A stretch of 64,000 nt of DNA from an uncultured Pirellulaceae bacterium. Its GTDB lineage: Bacteria > Planctomycetota > Planctomycetia > Pirellulales > Pirellulaceae. The DNA lies in NCBI GenBank assembly GCA_964425225.1, contig CAYRMD010000010.1:16712-80711 (forward strand), given 5' to 3'. This document shows positions 1-62,305 of this stretch, one piece after another; the stretch's first letter is position 1; every line of letters begins with the position of its first letter. The position numbers were made by a program, and so were the translations under genes. The notes under the pieces are model-generated. The model had not been told where the DNA came from. It did no database searches and saw nothing but the letters and a program-made list of their open reading frames with translations.

Positions 1-1635
1 GTAGCCAAGTACAGTACGCACAGCGGTGTGCGGAAGCGAAGCAGTATTGCTAGGCAACGGCGATAAAGGGCACGAACGTGATCCAGAAAGCGTGCGTGAC
101 GCCGCGCCTGTTCCGCGCGACCTCGTAATAACCAAATCGACATCACCGGAACAAAGGTGCTGGATAGAACATACGAGACGACCATGGAAAAACCGACTGC
201 CAGAGCCAGCGATGCGAACAACGACCGTGCAGCTCCTCGCATGAAAAAAGCCGAAATAAACACCGCCAAGATACAAACCATCGCCAAGAATCTTGGGCGA
301 ACCGTTTCGACGGCTCCATCGCGCACGGCTCTGGCCAAAGGAGCTCCTTTTTCCAAATGTGAATGGATATTCTCGATCGCTACAGTAGCCTCATCCACCA
401 GGATTCCGATGGCCAATGCAAGGCCACCTAAGGTCATCAAATTGAGTGTCTGGCCCGTGATCTACAAGGAAAAAACGGCCGCCATGAGGGCCGGGGGAAT
501 GTTGAGCACGACGACCAGTGCGCTGCGCCAATCTTTGAGAAACCATAGAATCATGAGTCCCACGAGAACTGCCCTCAATAGTCCTTCGGTCACGACACCG
601 CTGACCCCGCGGGTAACGTACGGTGTCTGGTCGAATTCAAAACTGACGCGCACGTCGTCGGGCAGAACCGCTTGCATCTGCGGCAACGCGGCTTTGATGG
701 CATGGATAACCGAAAGGGTTGAAGCATCGGCCCGTTTGGTCGCCAAGATGTACACAGCACGCCGGCCGTTGACCAAAGCATAACCTGCCGGAAGATCCAT
801 ATAATCCCGCACCGTGCCAATATCCCGCAAACAAATTGTGTGCCCCGCCTCGCTACGAATCGGTACGGTTGCTAATTCAGCTACCTCCTTCACAACAGAA
901 TTGACGGGCACGACCGGATACTTGTCTTAATGGCATATTGCCGGAAGGACTGATACGGTTGCTATTGGCCAACGCAACCGCTACCTCTTCAGGCGACATG
1001 CCGTAAGCTTGCATTCGCTCAGGATCCAGCGTCACGACTACCGTGCGCTGACTGCCCCAAACGGCGGCGGCGCAGAAACTCCCGGAAGTGCCGCAAACAT
1101 GGGCCGCACGCGAAACAAAGCCAAATCTTGTATTTCCGCAATCGAACGGGTTTCGCTCGACAACACCAGCCGACCTACCGGCACACTCCCGGTATCGAAC
1201 CGCATCACGAACGGTGATACGGTACCGGGCGGCATAAAGGCTTGAGAACGATTCACGTAGTTAATCGTTTCCGCCATAGCCTGCGCCATATTGGTGCCCG
1301 GATGAAACACCAGTTTCATCAACGCTACGCTATGTATATTGCGCGACTCGACATGATGGATGCCGCTGATGTAAAGAAAGTGATACTCGTAATAATTGGT
1401 CAAATAACCTTCCATCTGAGCAGGATCCATGCCGCCGTATGGCTGACAAACATAGATAAGGGGCATATTCAGTATTGGAAAAATGTCGACTGGTATTCCC
1501 CGCGGCATGGCATCGGGATACCGCCATCCGAGCGCTTGGCACAACGGCTTGCCGGTAGCCAGTAGGAATCCCAGCATCAGCCCCGCAATTGCGATCATTA
1601 CCGTTATCGGGTAGCGCAGAAACGATCAAACGCAT
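1..1635 (-). pseudogene. RND/AcrB-family efflux transporter, N-terminal part, broken by frameshifts; runs off the window start
   Basis: AcrB-like peptide continues across three minus-strand frames. ORF 1038-1598 ends in TAG, and [40 protein letters not shown] continues in another frame. Another shift lies near 925-935 before YPVVPVNSVVKEV (ORF 462-911). A further shift at about 455-462 (T6 run) precedes [30 protein letters not shown], which stays open to position 1. Confidence 0.6.
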
Positions 1636-6390: not shown

Positions 6391-6512
6391 AGGGTCGATT
6401 TACCCACTGCGCTTGAAATAGAGCTTCCGCATCGGAAAGGTCGATCAAGTATAGTAAACGAGTGGTCATAAACCCAAGAGGAAAACCGCAACCCGGGTGG
6501 GCAGCGGAACGG

Positions 6513-8001
6513 GTGTGTGCGTCTTGCTTGTAGGTGGGATTTTGGTGTAGCAGGCGGGCCATCGCGGAAGTTTCCCTATTTTCCGCGACAGGAATGGAAA
6601 CAAGGTGTCTATCCTGATGGTAGATGAAATTATCGGTTATTTGCCCGGCCTGGCGTCGCTATGCCTTTTTTGACTGGACCCAATGTGGGCCGATGTGGGT
6701 GCATCTTGGCAAAGGCGTCTCCTTGAGGCAGGGGCCGAGAGAGCCACGACCCCGCGGGACCGGCCAATTCAATTGAACGCATGAGCGCCAGGAAGACTTC
6801 GTGTAGGTTCCTTCTGATCGCCTACGTGGCCTTCGCCTCTTTGCGTTATGCCGGTTCGTCGAAACCTACCTATGACTGTCTGTGTGCCGGGGCGCCCGAC
6901 TGGCGGTGTTGCCGGACGCTCGGGTTCGACCAACGTTGGCGGTCAAGCGACGTATCAGAGCAGCTGGTTGAGTGGACCGACCGTGCGGTGCCGCCAAACG
7001 GTTACTTAACCCACTAGCCGCCGGTGCAAATTCCCATTCGGAAAACTGCCGTACAGCGATTTGGCAGCGTTTCTTTTGCTAGCGTCTTACAACATCTTGT
7101 TGGGCTTCGGCAGCTAGCGATTATCTCCGCCAATAAGCTACACCGCGTCTCAGCAATCTCGATAGTAAAAAGGTTTCCAAACGCCCGTGTCCAGCGACGT
7201 CGGCGTAGTGTGCCCCAAAGGGCAAGGTGTTTTAAAGCACCGTAACCGTTCCAGGAGAACGAGGTATACACAAGTGTGTCGATAATCATAGTCGTGAATC
7301 AAAGATGGTGGTACCGAGCCCGGGGACAGGCCATGCCGTCCCAGGGACAGGCACCATGGACAAGGGGACAGGCACCGCGGCCCTCGGCTTTGGTAATCTA
7401 CGACACCTAGAAAGAGTCGCGAAAAATATAGATTGGCTATTTTGGAGAACACAGTAATATTGGAAAAAATCTGTTACGGCCTCCAGTAACGCAAATAAAA
7501 CAGCCATTGTCGCGATACGGCGGCAAGCGGGTGCTGACATGGCTTACGTCGCGCTACATGGCGGGTTAGCGTGTTCGACGCAGTCGTTCGAGGCACGTTT
7601 TCTTCCGGGTATTGCTAGCACGAGATGTGGCGTGCGGTGTGACGAACCGTTAACGCTGTATGCGTCGGGATTGCAGTAGGTACGTGCGTCATCGGGAGTA
7701 GCAACGTACCTTAAAATCGCGTGTTTTTGAGAAAGCCTACTGCATAAGTTAATGTGCATCCCCTAGCCGTGGCCCGGCGAACCTGTTCCACCCGGGGAAT
7801 AGACGACCTGTCGGAGCGGGTTTACAAGCCGACTCGGTGGAAGAAGCTGGCCCGATGCGCATAGTGCCGCTTCCTAAGGGCCGCGGCTGCCTAACGGTCG
7901 CGGCTCTCGAAAGCTATCCCTCTTCGGAAGCAATACGGAGAACCCCGGTGATAGCCAACTCGATTGAAGCCACGTCCTACCGACAAAAAAGGCGCACACA
8001 C
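6513..8001 (+). repeat. Copy A of a ~1.5 kb ORF-less element with terminal inverted repeats
   Basis: Left end is gtgtgtgcgtcttgcttgt (6513). Right end is acaaaaaaggcgcacacac (7983-8001), its imperfect reverse complement. Aligns end to end with the reverse complement of 60727-62194. No ORF over 100 aa, and frames are not shared with copy B. Confidence 0.85.
7324..7373 (+). repeat. Three phased GGACAGGC(ACC) motifs inside copy A
   Basis: GGACAGGC starts at 7324, 7345 and 7366, exactly 21 nt apart. The same triple is in copy B with different spacer sequences. Confidence 0.8.
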
Positions 8002-8044
8002 GGTGGAGGGTGCCCCACTGGGGCAAAGTCCATGGTTCGGGTTT

Positions 8045-8152
8045 TGGTATTGAGAGCGGATAGGGCTTAACGCAAAGACGCAGCGGCGCACAAGTAGCAA
8101 GGATAACTTTAGTAAGTGCTTCGGCTCGTGGGGCTTTGCGGCATTGTGTTCC
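8045..8152 (+). repeat. Partial copy of the short-element module next to copy A
   Basis: tattgagagcggatagggcttaacgcaaagacgcagcggcgcacaagtagcaaggataac...ggctttgcggcattgtg resembles 9195-9296 and 21995-22100. Confidence 0.35.
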
Positions 8153-8471
8153 GTAACACGGGTTTTCCCTGGCTTTTTGCGTTTTGCCGTCGCTGAGGCG
8201 CCATGCCTTCTAGCCTAGCCCCCTACGGCCGCCGCAAATGGGAAGTCGAACCGCTTAGCTGATAGGCCGACTTCCAATTGAGTAAAATGGTCGAGTGCTC
8301 GGAGCGGCAACTTAGGGGCGAATAATTCTTGCACAGGCGAGGTTGGAAGCAGCCGTTGAAAAACCCCCTGAGAAGCACGGGGAATTTCTGTTGCATTGGG
8401 CCTCGGCCGTTCTATCACGTCGGGAAAATGGCAAACATCGACCGTCGACATTGGAAAAAAGGAAAGATGCT

Positions 8472-9038
8472 GTGGTCGCTGTTCGGACAAAACTGGCATG
8501 CTGCTGTGGTCGTGAGCACTGGGTGGAAGGCAGTCAGGCCGGTAGCCGAATTATCTGTACGTGTGGCTCGATGATCGAGGTACCAGCACTGCGCGTGCTC
8601 CAACAGCTCGCCGGTCCGACGCCGCAGCCAGCGCAACAGGTCGAACACCCGCGGTCGACACCATCGACTGCGATGGCTAAAGTGTTTTCGGGTGTTTTGG
8701 CTGTGGCAGCGATGGGCTGCGCTGCCGTGGCCGGTGCCCTGTGGTTCGCTCGGTTTCAAATTGACACGCGTCGCACACCCGAAGATTATCTTCAGGCGGG
8801 CCGAAATGCCATTGATCGCATGACACCCGAGGAAGCACTGGCGTTATGGCGCTACTATCGCGATCAAGGGTTAATGCACGAACCGATTCCTGAACCGCTC
8901 CGCAATTGGGCTGTGGCGACCCAACTTACCCGATGGGCGCTTGGTGTTACGCTGGCAGCCAGCGTATTGGTTGGGCTGGCTGCAGTTGCGACCGTTTGGG
9001 CTAGGCGCCAAAGACATTCGCCAATTCAAGCGTCTTGA
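8472..9038 (+). CDS. Hypothetical membrane protein with N-terminal CxCG...CxCG zinc-ribbon-like motif
   Basis: Contains ACCCGREHWVEGSQAGSRIICTCGSMIEVP followed by two hydrophobic segments. GTG 8472 is preceded by AAGGAAAG. The longest ORF starts at 8343. Confidence 0.55.
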   Translation: MVAVRTKLACCCGREHWVEGSQAGSRIICTCGSMIEVPALRVLQQLAGPTPQPAQQVEHPRSTPSTAMAKVFSGVLAVAAMGCAAVAGALWFARFQIDTRRTPEDYLQAGRNAIDRMTPEEALALWRYYRDQGLMHEPIPEPLRNWAVATQLTRWALGVTLAASVLVGLAAVATVWARRQRHSPIQAS

Positions 9039-9065
9039 ATGCTTGTAGCGGGCAGACGGATCGAT

Positions 9066-9300
9066 GTGTGTGTCTTGCTTGTTGATGAGATTATTCCTTA
9101 GTTTCGCAGGTATAGTGTCCGTGTACCTTTTTCCGCTCAACCCATTGCCACCACATATACGGTCGATACGTGATTCCTGAAAAGGGCGTTCTGTTAAGCG
9201 AATGGAGTGATGTGACGCAGAGGCACCAAGACGCAGCGAAGATAACATCCAGCGTCAATGGCCTAACTGCGCCTTAGCGCCTTTGCGTTGCATTGGATTA
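9066..9300 (+). repeat. Short, truncated related element (copy D)
   Basis: Starts with the TIR-like gtgtgtgtcttgcttgttgatg (9066). Contains aatggagtgatg...aagacgcagcg...gcgcctttgcgttgcattgg (motif at 9277-9290). Fills the convergent gap before the lpxA stop. Confidence 0.55.
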
Positions 9301-9325
9301 GCGGACGGTTTGGCCGACGAACGGC

Positions 9326-18200: not shown

Positions 18201-18264
18201 CGGGCCTGTCCGATACCAGGAAAATCAAGGCGGCTGACGCTTGCCCGTAACACAGGAGGCATCT

Positions 18265-21836: not shown

Positions 21837-21950
21837 GTTGATTCGCCTTTTCCAACGAGGGATTGTGCTATGTGTCCCTTGTAATTGTAGGCGAGATCAC
21901 TGCTTCGTTGGGCTGGCCTAGCGTAGATCGACCGTTTTTCCGTTTAATCC

Positions 21951-22354
21951 GATGTGCGCCCGTGCGTGTCTCGGTACGCGATTCGTGGCAAACGGGTTTT
22001 ATTGAGTGAGTGGAGTAATGGAGCGCCAAGGGGCAAAGGCAAAACGAGCATCACTCCCAGCGCCCATCGCCTCACTCCGTGTTAGCGCCTTTGCGTTGAA
22101 CCGATTTCACTGCACCCTTACGATAGCAGCTTTGGTGAGCCGTGGCTTGTAAGGACGCCTTTGCCAAAAAAGGGCACGTATCGGGCCGCGTCCGCTGGAC
22201 CGGACAAAGGTAGACCTGCGCCAAGCTCGGCAAATGAAGGAACCGTTTCCGCTACCACCACGACGGACACACCATTTACACTCGTGCCGCGGAAAAACAG
22301 GCAAACTTTCCCGATGGCCTGCCCTTTGCGCCAAAACTAAGACGCACCCACATC
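21951..22354 (-). mobile_element. ~400 bp MITE-like short element with terminal inverted repeats (copy C)
   Basis: gatgtgcgcccgtgcgtgtct (21951-) pairs with agacgcacccacatc (-22354) as imperfect inverted repeats. The interior aligns with 61917-62194 of copy B (gcgcctttgcgttgaa at 22085, cgcctttgccaa, gccgcggaaaaacaggcaaactttccc) and with copy D. Confidence 0.55.
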
Positions 22355-22725
22355 AACAGACAGCGGCAATTGGTTACCTAAAGAAGCTGAAAAAAAAACG
22401 CTTAACGAAGACACAACGACTCCACGACGCGCTGGCCGTTGCGGCCCGCCCAGCTTTTCGTGACCTACTTCCTTTTTCGCCTTTGTCTTAGAGCATCTTC
22501 CTGCGAATAGCAAACTCCGGTCGAGCGCCTTTACCTGAGAGCCTCGACGAACGCATAACGTCCAGCCTCAGAACTGCCTCGAAAAACCCCCTGTTGCTCC
22601 CGACACCGTGACCCATGAATTTGCACTCATCGCATGCACGAATCATCATACTTCAGATGAAGAGCCACGATAGAAAGTCGGCATATTCCTGGTTGACGCT
22701 GCCGCTTTTGCTTGGGGAGGACAAC

Positions 22726-24621
22726 ATGGCTAACACCTTTGCACTTCGATGTACCGTCCGGCTGCTTACGGCATTTGTAATTTTGTCCATTTCCGTTGTT
22801 TCGCCAACCAGCGCGTCGTTCGGTCAGGAACTTAAAGATCGTTACGTCAAACGTGAATATCGCATCCCGATGCGCGACGGAGTGCGATTGTTTACAGCCG
22901 TGTACACGCCGCGCGATGCTGGTCCGGAGCGCCGCTATCCTATCCTCATGATGCGTACGCCCTATTCCGTGCGCCCTTACGGCGAGGAGCGTTATCCTGA
23001 TCGACTGGGACCCAACCGGCACCTGGAGAAAGAAGGATATATTTTCGTGTATCAGGACGTGCGCGGTTGCTACATGTCCGAAGGAAGCTTCGTCAACATG
23101 CGCCCCCATGTTCCTCAGAAGCAATCTGCCCACGATATCGATGAAAGCTCCGATACGTACGATACGATCCAATGGTTGGTCGACAACCTTCCCTATCATA
23201 ATGGTCGGGTTGGCATGTGGGGGATTTCTTATCCTGGTTTTTACGCGGCCGCAGGCATGATCGATGCCCACCCGGCTCTTAAAGCGGTCTCTCCTCAAGC
23301 ACCCATTGCCGATTGGTGGTACGACGACTTTCACCATCACGGGGCTCTGTTCTTACCACACGCCTTTAATTTCCTGTCCTCCTTCGGCCAGTCGCGGCCG
23401 TTACTGACAAGCTTGTCGCCGGTAAGATTCGAACACCCGACGCAGGACGGGTATGAGTTTTTCATGAGAATTGGGAGCCTCAAGAATGTCAATGAAAGAT
23501 ATTTCCGTGATCGCATTTCTTTTTGGAACGACATTGTTTCACATCCGAACTACGACGACTTTTGGCAAGCCAGAAACCTGTTGCCTCACCTTCGCCGTGT
23601 TGCGCCCGCCGTGTTGATTGTTGGGGGTTGGTTCGATGCTGAAGACTTGTATGGGCCGTTAAGCATCTATCGGACAATCGAAGCGCGCGAGCCGCAGTGT
23701 GAGAACCGGCTGGTGATGGGACCGTGGGCCCACGGCGATTGGTCACGATTGCCGGGCGATCACCTAGGGAATATCGATTTTGAGTCCAACACGTCGGAAT
23801 TCTATCAAGAATGGATCGAGTCGGTGTTTTTCCGGTCGTATCTGAAAGGCGCAGGGGAACCATCGTTACCCGAGGCTTGCTTGTTCGAAACCGGGAGCAA
23901 TCGCTGGCGTTATTATGCCAAATGGCCTCCGCAAAAAGCCGTTTCTCGCAAACTCTTTTTGCAACCTGGCGGAAAACTCGCTTGGGATGAGCCAAAATCC
24001 GATTCGGTGGCGTATTCGGAGTTCGTGAGCGACCCAAATAAGCCGGTTCCGTTTACGGAGAAGATTTCGCCGGCCATGACGCGTGAATACATGATCGATG
24101 ATCAGCGATTTGCAGCGCGCCGGCCGGATGTGTTGGTTTTTGTGACGGAGCCTTTCGATGAAGAGTTGGTAATTGCTGGTCCGTTATCCGCAGAACTGTG
24201 GGTTTCGACCTCGCAACAGGACGCGGACTGGATCGTCAAGCTGATCGATGTTTTTCCGGACCGCGCTGATCCCGGGCGGTTCTTGGAGGAAGGTCGAAGC
24301 ATGGGTGGATACCAGATGTTAATAAGAAGCGAGGTGCTACGCGGTCGTTTTCGCGAAGACCCTTCGCGACCGCGACCGTTCACATCCGGTGAGGTAACAC
24401 GCATCCGTATACCACTTCTGGACGTACTGCACCGTTTCCGGCGCGGCCATCGGTTCATGATCCACATTCAAAGCACCTGGTTTCCCCTGGTGGATCGAAA
24501 TCCCCAAAAGTGGGTTGAGAACATTTATACCGCTGACGACGGCGATTTTGTTCCGGCGGTTCATCGTGTCTACCACACGCCAACGTATCCGTCGCACATC
24601 GAGTTATTACGCAGTGATTAA
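22726..24621 (+). CDS. CocE/NonD-family hydrolase / Xaa-Pro dipeptidyl-peptidase (S15)
   Basis: Signal peptide, then RDGVRLFTAVYTPRD...PILMMRTPY...GMWGISYPGFY (GxSYxG nucleophile) and a C-terminal beta-sandwich. GGGGAGG lies before ATG 22726. Confidence 0.85.
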   Translation: MANTFALRCTVRLLTAFVILSISVVSPTSASFGQELKDRYVKREYRIPMRDGVRLFTAVYTPRDAGPERRYPILMMRTPYSVRPYGEERYPDRLGPNRHLEKEGYIFVYQDVRGCYMSEGSFVNMRPHVPQKQSAHDIDESSDTYDTIQWLVDNLPYHNGRVGMWGISYPGFYAAAGMIDAHPALKAVSPQAPIADWWYDDFHHHGALFLPHAFNFLSSFGQSRPLLTSLSPVRFEHPTQDGYEFFMRIGSLKNVNERYFRDRISFWNDIVSHPNYDDFWQARNLLPHLRRVAPAVLIVGGWFDAEDLYGPLSIYRTIEAREPQCENRLVMGPWAHGDWSRLPGDHLGNIDFESNTSEFYQEWIESVFFRSYLKGAGEPSLPEACLFETGSNRWRYYAKWPPQKAVSRKLFLQPGGKLAWDEPKSDSVAYSEFVSDPNKPVPFTEKISPAMTREYMIDDQRFAARRPDVLVFVTEPFDEELVIAGPLSAELWVSTSQQDADWIVKLIDVFPDRADPGRFLEEGRSMGGYQMLIRSEVLRGRFREDPSRPRPFTSGEVTRIRIPLLDVLHRFRRGHRFMIHIQSTWFPLVDRNPQKWVENIYTADDGDFVPAVHRVYHTPTYPSHIELLRSD

Positions 24622-60483: not shown

Positions 60484-60726
60484 AACGTGCGCGTGCTAAC
60501 CGAACCGACGGAGGGCGAGCGCAGTTTGTTGCCGGAACGCACAAGGCTCTTTTTGGGTTGGCCACCGCTCTATCCCGCAAGAGTCTTGATGTTCTTAACG
60601 GCTCACTGCCAATCGGCCTTGGTGTATTTACCCGCTAAATTGTTCACTGCGCCATACTATACAAGTGGGGAGAGCACGCATCGGGCAACCTACCGGCGAC
60701 TGGCAGTGACACGCTTTTATCGTTAC

Positions 60727-62194
60727 ATGTGTGCGTCTCACTTCTAGGAAGCACGTGGCTGTAATTGAGCCGGCTATCACCCGGATTCTCCCTATGGCTT
60801 CCGAAGATGCATGGCCTTACACAGCCGTGACTGTTAGGGAGCGGCGGTATGCAAATCGGACAGGGCTCTTTCGGGTCGGCGTGTGAAGCCGCTCCTACAG
60901 GTCGTGCATTCCCGGGGTGGACCAATTGCGCGGCGCTAACGCCATGGGAGGGAGATTTACTGATGCCGCAAGCTTTCGCAAGGACGCACGAATTAAGGAA
61001 CGTGCTGTTCCGATGACGCACGTACTTACAGTCACGACTTCGAACAGCGTCAAAGGCTCGTCACGTCGCTGGCCGAATCTTGTGCTAGCAAAACTCCCAA
61101 GCGAACGTGTGCCGATCGACAGCCTCGTGCCACCCAACCCCCCTTGTACGGCGACTAAAGCCATCTGGGCACCCGATCGCTAACTTATCCGGTCAATGGC
61201 GGCTTTCGCCACCTTACTGGGTAAAAGGCCAGTTTTTTCCAATGTTTCTTCTTTAGCTAACGTAGTCGCGTTTTCTTGTTTCGCCAGTCTTCCCATTTTC
61301 ATCAAATTTCCAAACCAAAGAGTCACGGTGCCTGTCCTCTTGCCTAAGGTGCCTGTCCCCGAGCCGACCGAGCCTGTCCCCGGGCCCGGTACCACCCTCT
61401 TTGGTATACGACTACGATTATCGACATACTTACGTATGGCCGGGTCACCTGGCACGGTTACGGTTATTTAGAACACTTTACTCCCTCGGCGTCCACGGTG
61501 CCGACATCGCTGGACACGCGCGCTTGGAAACCTCTTTACTCCCGAGATTGCTGAGATGCGGTGTTGCTTTTCGGCGTAGATAGTCGCTAGCAGCCAAGGC
61601 CCAAGAAGACGTTGACAGACGCTCGCTAAAGAAACGCTACCAAATTGCTGCACGGCAGCTTTCCGAAAGGGAATCGGCGCCGGCGGCTAGTGGGTTAGGG
61701 AAAACTGTTGGGCGGCACCGCACGATGGGTGCACTATACCCGTTGCTCCGATACGTTCCTCGCTGGCCGTCGTTATGCGAAGCCGAGCGTCCATCACCAC
61801 ACCGTCAGTTGCGCGGATTGTCGCACAGACAATTACAAGTAGGCTTCGGACGAATCAAATAGCGCAAAGACACCGCGGCCCACGCAGACGATCGCAATGT
61901 ACATGCAGCCTTCCTTGCGCCTTTGCGTTGAATTGAATTGGCCGCTCGCTTACGGTCGCAGCTCTGTGGAGTCCTTGCTCGACGCAGCGCCTTTGCCAAT
62001 AAGCACCCGCATCGGTTGACATTGGATTGGGCCGAAAAAAAGCATACCATGCCAGACCGGGCAAGTGACCGAACCATTTTATCTACCATCAAGACAGATA
62101 ACTCGTTTCCAATTCTGCCGCGAAAAATAGGCAAATTTCCGCCATGGTCCGCCTTTTAGACCAGAATCCCATCCACAATCAAGATGCACACACT
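60727..62194 (-). repeat. Copy B of the ~1.5 kb ORF-less TIR-bounded element (inverted relative to copy A)
   Basis: Ends are atgtgtgcgtctc (60727-60739) and cacaatcaagatgcacacac (62175-62194). Identical blocks shared with copy A: ccggcggctagtgggt 61680-61695 = rc of 7009-7024; ccgatgacgcacgtac 61010-61025 = rc of 7680-7695; ggctatcacc 60772 = rc of 7947; ggcggcaccgcac 61711 = rc of 6983. Confidence 0.85.
61330..61379 (-). repeat. Three phased GGACAGGC motifs inside copy B
   Basis: GCCTGTCC starts at 61330, 61351 and 61372, 21 nt apart. Spacers differ from those in copy A. Confidence 0.8.
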
Positions 62195-62305
62195 ACCGTT
62201 ACCAGTTGGCCTGGACGCCATAGCATTCTCTCGGCAGAATCCAGCCACCCGGATGATTTCTGCCTGAGCAACTTCGCGGGAACTCCTAACATAGGATCCA
62301 TTACG

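Follow-up and report, generated by a model that had tools for sequence, protein, structure and literature searches.

The DNA analysed here, 64,000 nucleotides of a contig from an uncultured Pirellulaceae bacterium (this whole stretch is referred to as the window), contains two long elements, A and B, that lie as inverted copies on the two sides of a block of ~53 kb including a tRNA cluster, tuf, secE-nusG, rplKAJL, rpoBC, the str, S10, and spc operons, secY, adk, and map; given this arrangement, recombination of A with B would turn the entire block around. Each element holds a single array of three short boxes sharing the core GGACAGGC, repeated with a period of exactly 21 nt in copy A and copy B alike, and this array, which is tentatively interpreted below as a set of docking sites for a DNA-binding protein, is the main subject of the analysis. 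The element family in the window consists of two long members (A and B) and two short ones (C and D), whose positions and main features are collected in the table.

The two long elements are 72.6% identical over ~1.5 kb, and the limits of their conserved stretch coincide exactly with inverted GTGTGTGCG... termini. At their ends both carry imperfect terminal inverted repeats (TIRs) of the form GTGTGTGCGTCTTG...; in A the similarity of the two ends continues more weakly beyond the first 27 nt, up to ~70 nt at 66%, while the TIR core of B is ~12 nt long, and TGTGTGCG(T/C)CT is common to all four ends of A and B. The terminus motif (GTGTGTGCGTCTT) is found again at 22339-22350 (-) and 9065-9076 (+), where it opens C and D, and all the terminus matches present in the window with no more than one mismatch are located at boundaries of family members. 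In particular, C matches A and B over their first ~280 nt (nhmmer E = 2e-31), and the end module of the long elements recurs, whole or in part, in both C and D; these short members are devoid of the entire central region and, therefore, of the boxes. The base composition of the element is that of the surrounding genome. From these features we infer that A, B, C, and D form a family of non-autonomous, TIR-bounded transposable elements similar to miniature inverted-repeat transposable elements (MITEs). The usual size of MITEs is under ~600 bp, a limit that only C and D respect, A and B being too long; in fact, the two long copies are unusually long for gene-less members of such a family. A potential hairpin, CGCGGAA-N11-TTCCGCG followed by a T-rich run, is also located in the shared left-end module, with small changes among A (6555-6590), B (62150-62115), and C (~22310-22275).

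The organization of the array corresponds to what a previous reading of the sequence alone had described, namely three boxes at exact 21-nt spacing, preceded by a conserved flank (GGTGGTACCG(A/G)GCCCGG in both copies) and located mid-element. The distances to the two ends of the element are 811 and 625 nt. The same reading had noticed that the boxes are conserved while the spacers have diverged, and this is confirmed by the comparison of A and B, a single pairwise comparison of two long copies, in which 24/24 box positions are identical with respect to 15/26 spacer positions (Fisher exact p = 2.7e-4). The core GGACAGGC occurs eight times in the window compared to an expected 2.36 +/- 1.53, a count reached by none of 100 dinucleotide shuffles, and it is the sole 8-mer with at least three occurrences in each long element; the two matches outside the arrays, at 18204 and 33433, stand alone, as would be expected by chance. 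No relation exists among the spacers of units 1-3, and Tandem Repeats Finder (TRF) does not call any repeat on the array at a score of at least 30, so that the array is not a recent tandem triplication; for the same reasons, and because the units are not alike over their whole length, a simple tandem repeat or minisatellite was rejected. In each of the six units the conserved positions make up one and the same contiguous block, a pattern that points to selection acting on it. The common 21-nt phase is weak evidence when taken alone, since the A/B alignment contains about one indel per 100 nt (own count) and a tract of 50 nt is thus expected to be indel-free.

Within the central region, GC content is highest in the array (65-70%), and the stretch directly 3' of it is the most AT-rich and the least conserved of the element in both copies, within an A/B identity that ranges from 52% to 87% along the element in 60-nt windows. 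The flank at 7307-7323 includes the palindromes GGTACC and CCCGGG, and its GGTG is able to pair with the CACC of box 2. The derivation of the box from a copy of the terminal repeat was also considered and rejected, the two sequences matching by eye at ~6/11 positions. Another short motif, in the forms TGGAAAC, GTTTCCAA, and TTGGAAA, occurs in either orientation at 6595-6601, 7173-7180, and 7460-7466; its positions are homologous in the two long copies, which do not differ in it.

Table. Coordinates of the family members, their termini, and the elements of the box array in the window.
Feature	Position	Strand	Description
Element A	6513..8001	+	1489 nt, without ORFs, TIR-bounded
Element B	60727..62193	-	1467 nt, paralogue of A, inverted orientation
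Member C	21871..22352		~480 nt, foldback of two end modules face to face, same terminus, no boxes
Member D	9065..9300 (end approximate)	+	~240 nt, begins TGTGTGTGTCTTGCTTG, no boxes
Left TIR of A	6513..6539	+	GTGTGTGCGTCTTGCTTGTAGGTGGGA; weaker similarity to right end up to ~6585
Right TIR of A	7975..8001	-	81% complementary to left TIR over 27 nt; A ends TCCTACCGACAAAAAAGGCGCACACAC
Direct repeat at left end of B	62194..62202	-	GTAACGGTA; candidate target-site duplication
Partner repeat at right end of B	60718-60726		GTAACGATA, 8/9 match to GTAACGGTA
Flank of the array	A 7307..7323; B 61380-61396	A +; B -	GGTGGTACCG(A/G)GCCCGG, upstream of the array, conserved A/B
Box 1, copy A	7324..7331	+	GGACAGGC, followed by CAT, not ACC
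Box 2, copy A	7345..7355	+	GGACAGGCACC
Box 3, copy A	7366..7376	+	GGACAGGCACC
Box 1, copy B	61372..61379	-	GGACAGGC
Box 2, copy B	61348..61358	-	GGACAGGCACC (GGACAGGC core 61351-61358)
Box 3, copy B	61327..61337	-	GGACAGGCACC (GGACAGGC core 61330-61337)
AT-rich stretch	A 7395..7500; B ~61205-61310	A +	GC 37-40%, directly 3' of the array, 52-57% A/B identity
Long-range helix, 5' arm	A 7375..7382; B 61328-61321	A +	8-bp Watson-Crick helix, abuts box 3; A CCGCGGCC, B CCGTGACT
Long-range helix, 3' arm	A 7879..7886; B 60832-60825	A +	A GGCCGCGG, B AGTCACGG
Invariant CGGTGCC	6986..6992	+	Complementary to GGCACCG of box 3 and GGCACC of box 2

The search for relatives did not disclose any further long copy or relative of the element in the collections scanned, so that all the readings discussed here draw on two copies. 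The scan of the genome collection with the most conserved 18-mer gave only two matches, both unrelated, and that of the metagenomes with the flank plus two boxes gave only two unrelated ones, a tandem repeat and a chance match; four scans of viral contigs returned nothing or simple 21-nt tandem repeats, and blastn against plasmids and phages did not reveal similarity to the element. In Rfam no match was obtained at the gathering score and only two chance-level matches, both far from the boxes, at E <= 10; a known RNA family was consequently rejected. The pattern GGACAGGC-N13-GGACAGGC-N13-GGACAGGC is present in unrelated IMG/VR contigs (L003-L008). Those inspected, L005 and L008, contain 21-nt tandem repeats that are perfect or nearly so, one of the two cases belonging to a giant-virus metagenome-assembled genome (MAG); the inspected matches being plain tandem repeats, the bare threefold pattern is unspecific.

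The boxes are constrained as nucleotides and not as amino acids, a constraint consistent with a binding array as well as with a nucleic-acid module. A and B have stop codons in common in all six frames, indicating that their common ancestor was already non-coding; Pfam does not match any frame of the element, and the six-frame translation of A, compared with 5.8e9 proteins so that ORFs wrongly called in related elements would also be detected, did not find any match. On the basis of the shared stops, the absence of matches in Pfam and the protein database, the flat distribution of differences over codon positions, and the proportions of nonsynonymous (pN) and synonymous (pS) differences, a coding sequence, a pseudogene, and a decayed transposase were rejected.

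The interpretation preferred here, although tentatively, is that the boxes are DNA docking sites placed on the same face of the duplex for a protein supplied in trans, and that together they make up a cis-acting site inside a non-autonomous mobile element. Three cores separated by two helical turns are on one face of the duplex, and the points in favor of recognition as DNA are the direct repeats, the 21-bp period, and the succession of a GC-rich array and an AT-rich stretch in both copies; moreover, the 8-11-bp core is the size of a single recognition element, and the signs of a structured RNA are weak. According to this scheme, the family would move like non-autonomous transposons of the MITE type, and the three cores would be docking sites for a sequence-specific DNA-binding protein encoded elsewhere in the genome, either by an autonomous partner element or as a host regulator. 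Three bound protomers, beside an AT-rich stretch that would be easily melted or bent, could form a cis-acting nucleoprotein site acting as a transposition enhancer, an iteron-like site, or an operator or site similar to an upstream activating sequence.

Some known systems show a partial likeness to this arrangement. The ends of Tn7 and Mu, which begin with TGT, carry repeated protein sites with a phase of ~20-22 bp, bound by TnsB and MuA respectively, and Mu also has an internal cis-acting transpositional enhancer far from its ends. The elements described here share with them phased repeats within a mobile element and ends starting with TGT; however, the boxes are 811 and 625 nt away from the ends, form one array instead of two, and are unlike the terminal sequence, and the candidate duplication is of 9 bp and not of 5 bp. 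With MITEs and mobile insertion cassettes they have in common the TIRs, the lack of a transposase gene, the presence of copies and size variants sharing the ends, the intergenic location, and a candidate 9-bp duplication at one copy. In contrast, A and B reach 1.47-1.49 kb, do not contain a passenger ORF as insertion cassettes do, and only one of the two long copies has a convincing candidate duplication. Another comparison is offered by the BrickBuilt MITE of Porphyromonas gingivalis, an intergenic element with inverted-repeat ends and an internal array with a periodicity of ~21-23 nt, for which a regulatory role was proposed and whose 23-nt units are arranged head to tail, without spacers and in variable number (PMC4596501). 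The MITE-like nature, the inverted-repeat ends, the internal periodic array, and the intergenic location are the same, whereas in A and B only an 8-11-nt core is repeated, in three units with unrelated spacers that TRF does not call.

Several observations weigh against the docking-site interpretation. No protein partner for the boxes was found, and neither the element, which is gene-less, nor the 8 neighboring ORFs scanned with Pfam, which are housekeeping or hypothetical, include a DNA-binding, rep, transposase, or recombinase gene. The array is located mid-element and is unlike the termini, and in this it differs from the ordinary sites bound by a transposase at element ends; the conservation of the motif is deduced from only two copies and from one pairwise comparison. 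In addition, the flanks of A match at 5/9 positions only, without a convincing target-site duplication, those of C and D do not give a clear picture in this respect, and the exact termini are uncertain because the flanks of A, B, and D are slightly alike. Finally, the helix adjoining box 3 (7375-7382/7879-7886) shows three compensatory double changes between A and B, and the hairpin formed by box 1 and spacer 1 is largely preserved in B via G-U pairs; these two structures favor a reading as single-stranded nucleic acid. The sequence-only reading had considered conserved motifs at conserved phase with diverged spacers as the signature of iteron-like arrays or of arrays bound by a transposase, recombinase, or regulator. 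Of this claim, the conserved and repeated nucleotide motif with diverged spacers in two paralogous elements stands, while the labels of iteron, transposase, and recombinase site, like the RNA alternative, are not demonstrated: such genes are absent from the element and the 8 scanned neighbors, and the boxes differ from the termini; its general view, that a motif array signals binding or an RNA module, is reasonable.

Among the alternatives, it is possible, though rather unlikely, that the array is an RNA or single-stranded DNA module, that is, that the element is transcribed and the boxes belong to a folded domain or represent repeated motifs for an RNA-binding protein. In the covariation tests, which compare two sequences only (A and B), three compensatory changes in one helix, as found beside box 3, were reached by 5/150 block-shuffled alignments in an element-wide search (p about 0.03); these changes could be due to selection for pairing or to a single templated conversion between arms ~500 nt apart. 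In the RNAalifold prediction, box 2 is paired with the flank (AUGGUG..CC..CCC) and spacer 1 with box 1; one double change (U-A to G-U) and two changes from G-C to G-U are tolerated only on the element strand. In the spacer 1 hairpin the copies differ at 3/3 loop and 3/8 stem positions, two of the latter remaining paired as G-U. Conserved complementary segments of at least 6 bp are in excess (18 vs 7.6 +/- 3.1), with 12 vs 7.8 in the direct-repeat control, and the invariant CGGUGCC upstream is complementary to boxes 2 and 3. Each box also includes a GGA, as in the sponge RNAs for CsrA/RsmA. Sponge RNAs of the CsrB/RsmZ type are characterized by repeated GGA motifs, and the likeness lies in a short GGA-containing motif at regular intervals in non-coding sequence; in contrast, here the motifs are only three, their context, (G/A)GGGACAGGC, is unlike the CsrA consensus, and Rfam does not give a match. 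Indeed, against an RNA module there is no Rfam match near the boxes even at E = 10, the z-scores around the boxes are -1.4 to -1.5 for the alignment folds and -0.4 and -0.9 for the single-sequence folds, the covariation of local helices is at the level of shuffled alignments (13 vs 9.4 +/- 3.4), the minimum-free-energy folds around box 1 differ between A and B, and a consensus scan did not find any conserved promoter or terminator; furthermore, intramolecular pairing cannot account for all three identical boxes. Much further from plausibility, to the point of being hardly credible, is the proposal that the boxes encode the heptad repeat of a small protein. The array is covered by ORFs on both strands of both copies, forward at 7305-7457 in A (PGTG...GTGT...TGT) and 61455-61180 in B, and reverse at 7540-7286 in A (xVPVPxx three times) and 61196-61471 in B; 21 nt correspond to 7 codons, and the reverse ORFs keep an equal length, 44 codons, from a homologous ATG to the repeat. 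However, the A/B differences are flat over the codon positions (13/13/13 around the boxes and 23/31/27 in the reverse ORF), pS and pN are respectively 0.32 and 0.26 in the forward ORF, not better than in the other frames, and 0.33 and 0.38 in the reverse one, and the C-terminal halves of the forward ORFs of A and B are unrelated past a frame shift. The third-codon positions that would be synonymous are invariant in nearly all six boxes in both spanning frames, most differences among the boxes alter the amino acid, and no match exists in Pfam or in the protein database.

It is unlikely that the array is a functionless relic, meaning the decayed remnant of a repeat inside a dead mobile element, with an apparent conservation that would derive from chance, local differences in mutation rate, or gene conversion between the copies. 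This explanation benefits from the availability of two copies only, from an identity that varies along the element anyway (52% to 87% in 60-nt windows), and from the failure to detect a relative of the family in the collections scanned or a neighbor indicative of function; nevertheless, a 21-nt tandem repeat decaying at random would not yield the same contiguous 8-11-nt block in six units with unrelated spacers, the difference between boxes and spacers has the Fisher p of 2.7e-4 given above, and the A/B alignment lacks the long identical tracts expected from recent gene conversion. A specific version of DNA binding, in which the element would carry an iteron-type replication origin or a partition site, is very improbable. 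The iterons of theta plasmids (RK2 oriV, pSC101) are direct repeats with a conserved core and a phase of ~21-22 bp beside an AT-rich region, and in both A and B three direct-repeat cores at 21 bp are likewise followed by an AT-rich stretch with a GC content of 37-40%. At homologous sites 39 nt upstream of box 1, 7277-7285 (-) and 61418-61426 (+), there is a conserved TTATCGACA, one mismatch from a DnaA box, and the order of DnaA box, iterons, and AT-rich region recalls the RK2 oriV. On the other hand, neither a rep nor a par gene is present in or beside the element, the setting is chromosomal among housekeeping genes, the boxes are three only, DnaA-box-like 9-mers are found in the window at the chance rate (10 vs 8.95 expected), and similarity to plasmid or phage records is lacking. 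More doubtful than the relic, yet less remote than an origin, is a broader proposal in which A and B are a mobile protein-free module of a sparsely sampled Pirellulaceae lineage, spread by a transposase acting in trans: it would be either a 1.5-kb non-coding RNA gene, with the 7375-7382/7879-7886 helix as part of its structure and the boxes as protein-binding motifs, or a mobile cis-acting DNA module similar to an origin, a centromere, or an enhancer.

With regard to possible transcription signals, a sigma-54 or sigma-70 promoter at the boxes or 3' of them was rejected, as it is not conserved between A and B by eye and none appears in the consensus scan. A structured RNA on the reverse strand at the right end of the element is only a weak lead, with an alignment z-score of -3 to -3.7 but single-sequence z-scores of +0.2 and -0.9. 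Weak 5-bp hairpins with different stems, followed by TTTTTTCCAAT, lie on the strand opposite to the array at 7466-7490 (-) in A and 61216-61243 (+) in B; only the B-copy hairpin received a terminator-like flag in the consensus scan.

The nearest relatives of the organism are Pirellulaceae MAGs, the best foreign matches being 76% identical for Map and 65-68% for the YyaL-like protein. The gene order at both insertion sites is recognizable in these relatives (S10-spc-secY-adk-map at one site and YyaL-outer membrane protein-hypothetical...LpxA-HPPK at the other), and the syntenic loci of these relatives, which are distant ones (65-76% amino-acid identity), are without element, box, or terminus motif, a difference in presence and absence that accords with mobile elements. 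The interval 6391-9325, between a conserved hypothetical gene and lpxA, is variable: in the window it is occupied by element A, a 231-aa membrane ORF, and element D, in the relative L014 (13340-16385) by DUF6978, DUF1828, a hypothetical gene, and a methyltransferase, and in the relative L015 (11017-11859) by a small TPR ORF. Member C has a divergent S15 peptidase gene (22615-24621) on one side and, on the other, a small membrane-protein ORF (21836-21393, -). Outside these regions, the match of the 186-aa ORF at 1038-1598 (-) to the AcrB/ACR_tran profile, which has 1021 positions, is confined to positions 30-173; the AcrB-like gene of L014 is likewise called in two pieces, of 226 aa and 890 aa.

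The meaning of these elements depends on the nature of the boxes. If they are a relic, the array is an ordinary repeat within a decayed transposon. If, on the contrary, they are a selected protein-docking array in a gene-less 1.5-kb mobile element, this element would carry function and would not be junk, and it would represent an instance, rare among bacteria, in which a borrowed transposase moves a large non-coding cargo, within a phylum, the Planctomycetota, whose mobile elements and regulators are poorly known. Moreover, the inverted copies around ~53 kb of essential translation and transcription genes are a potential substrate for large inversions.

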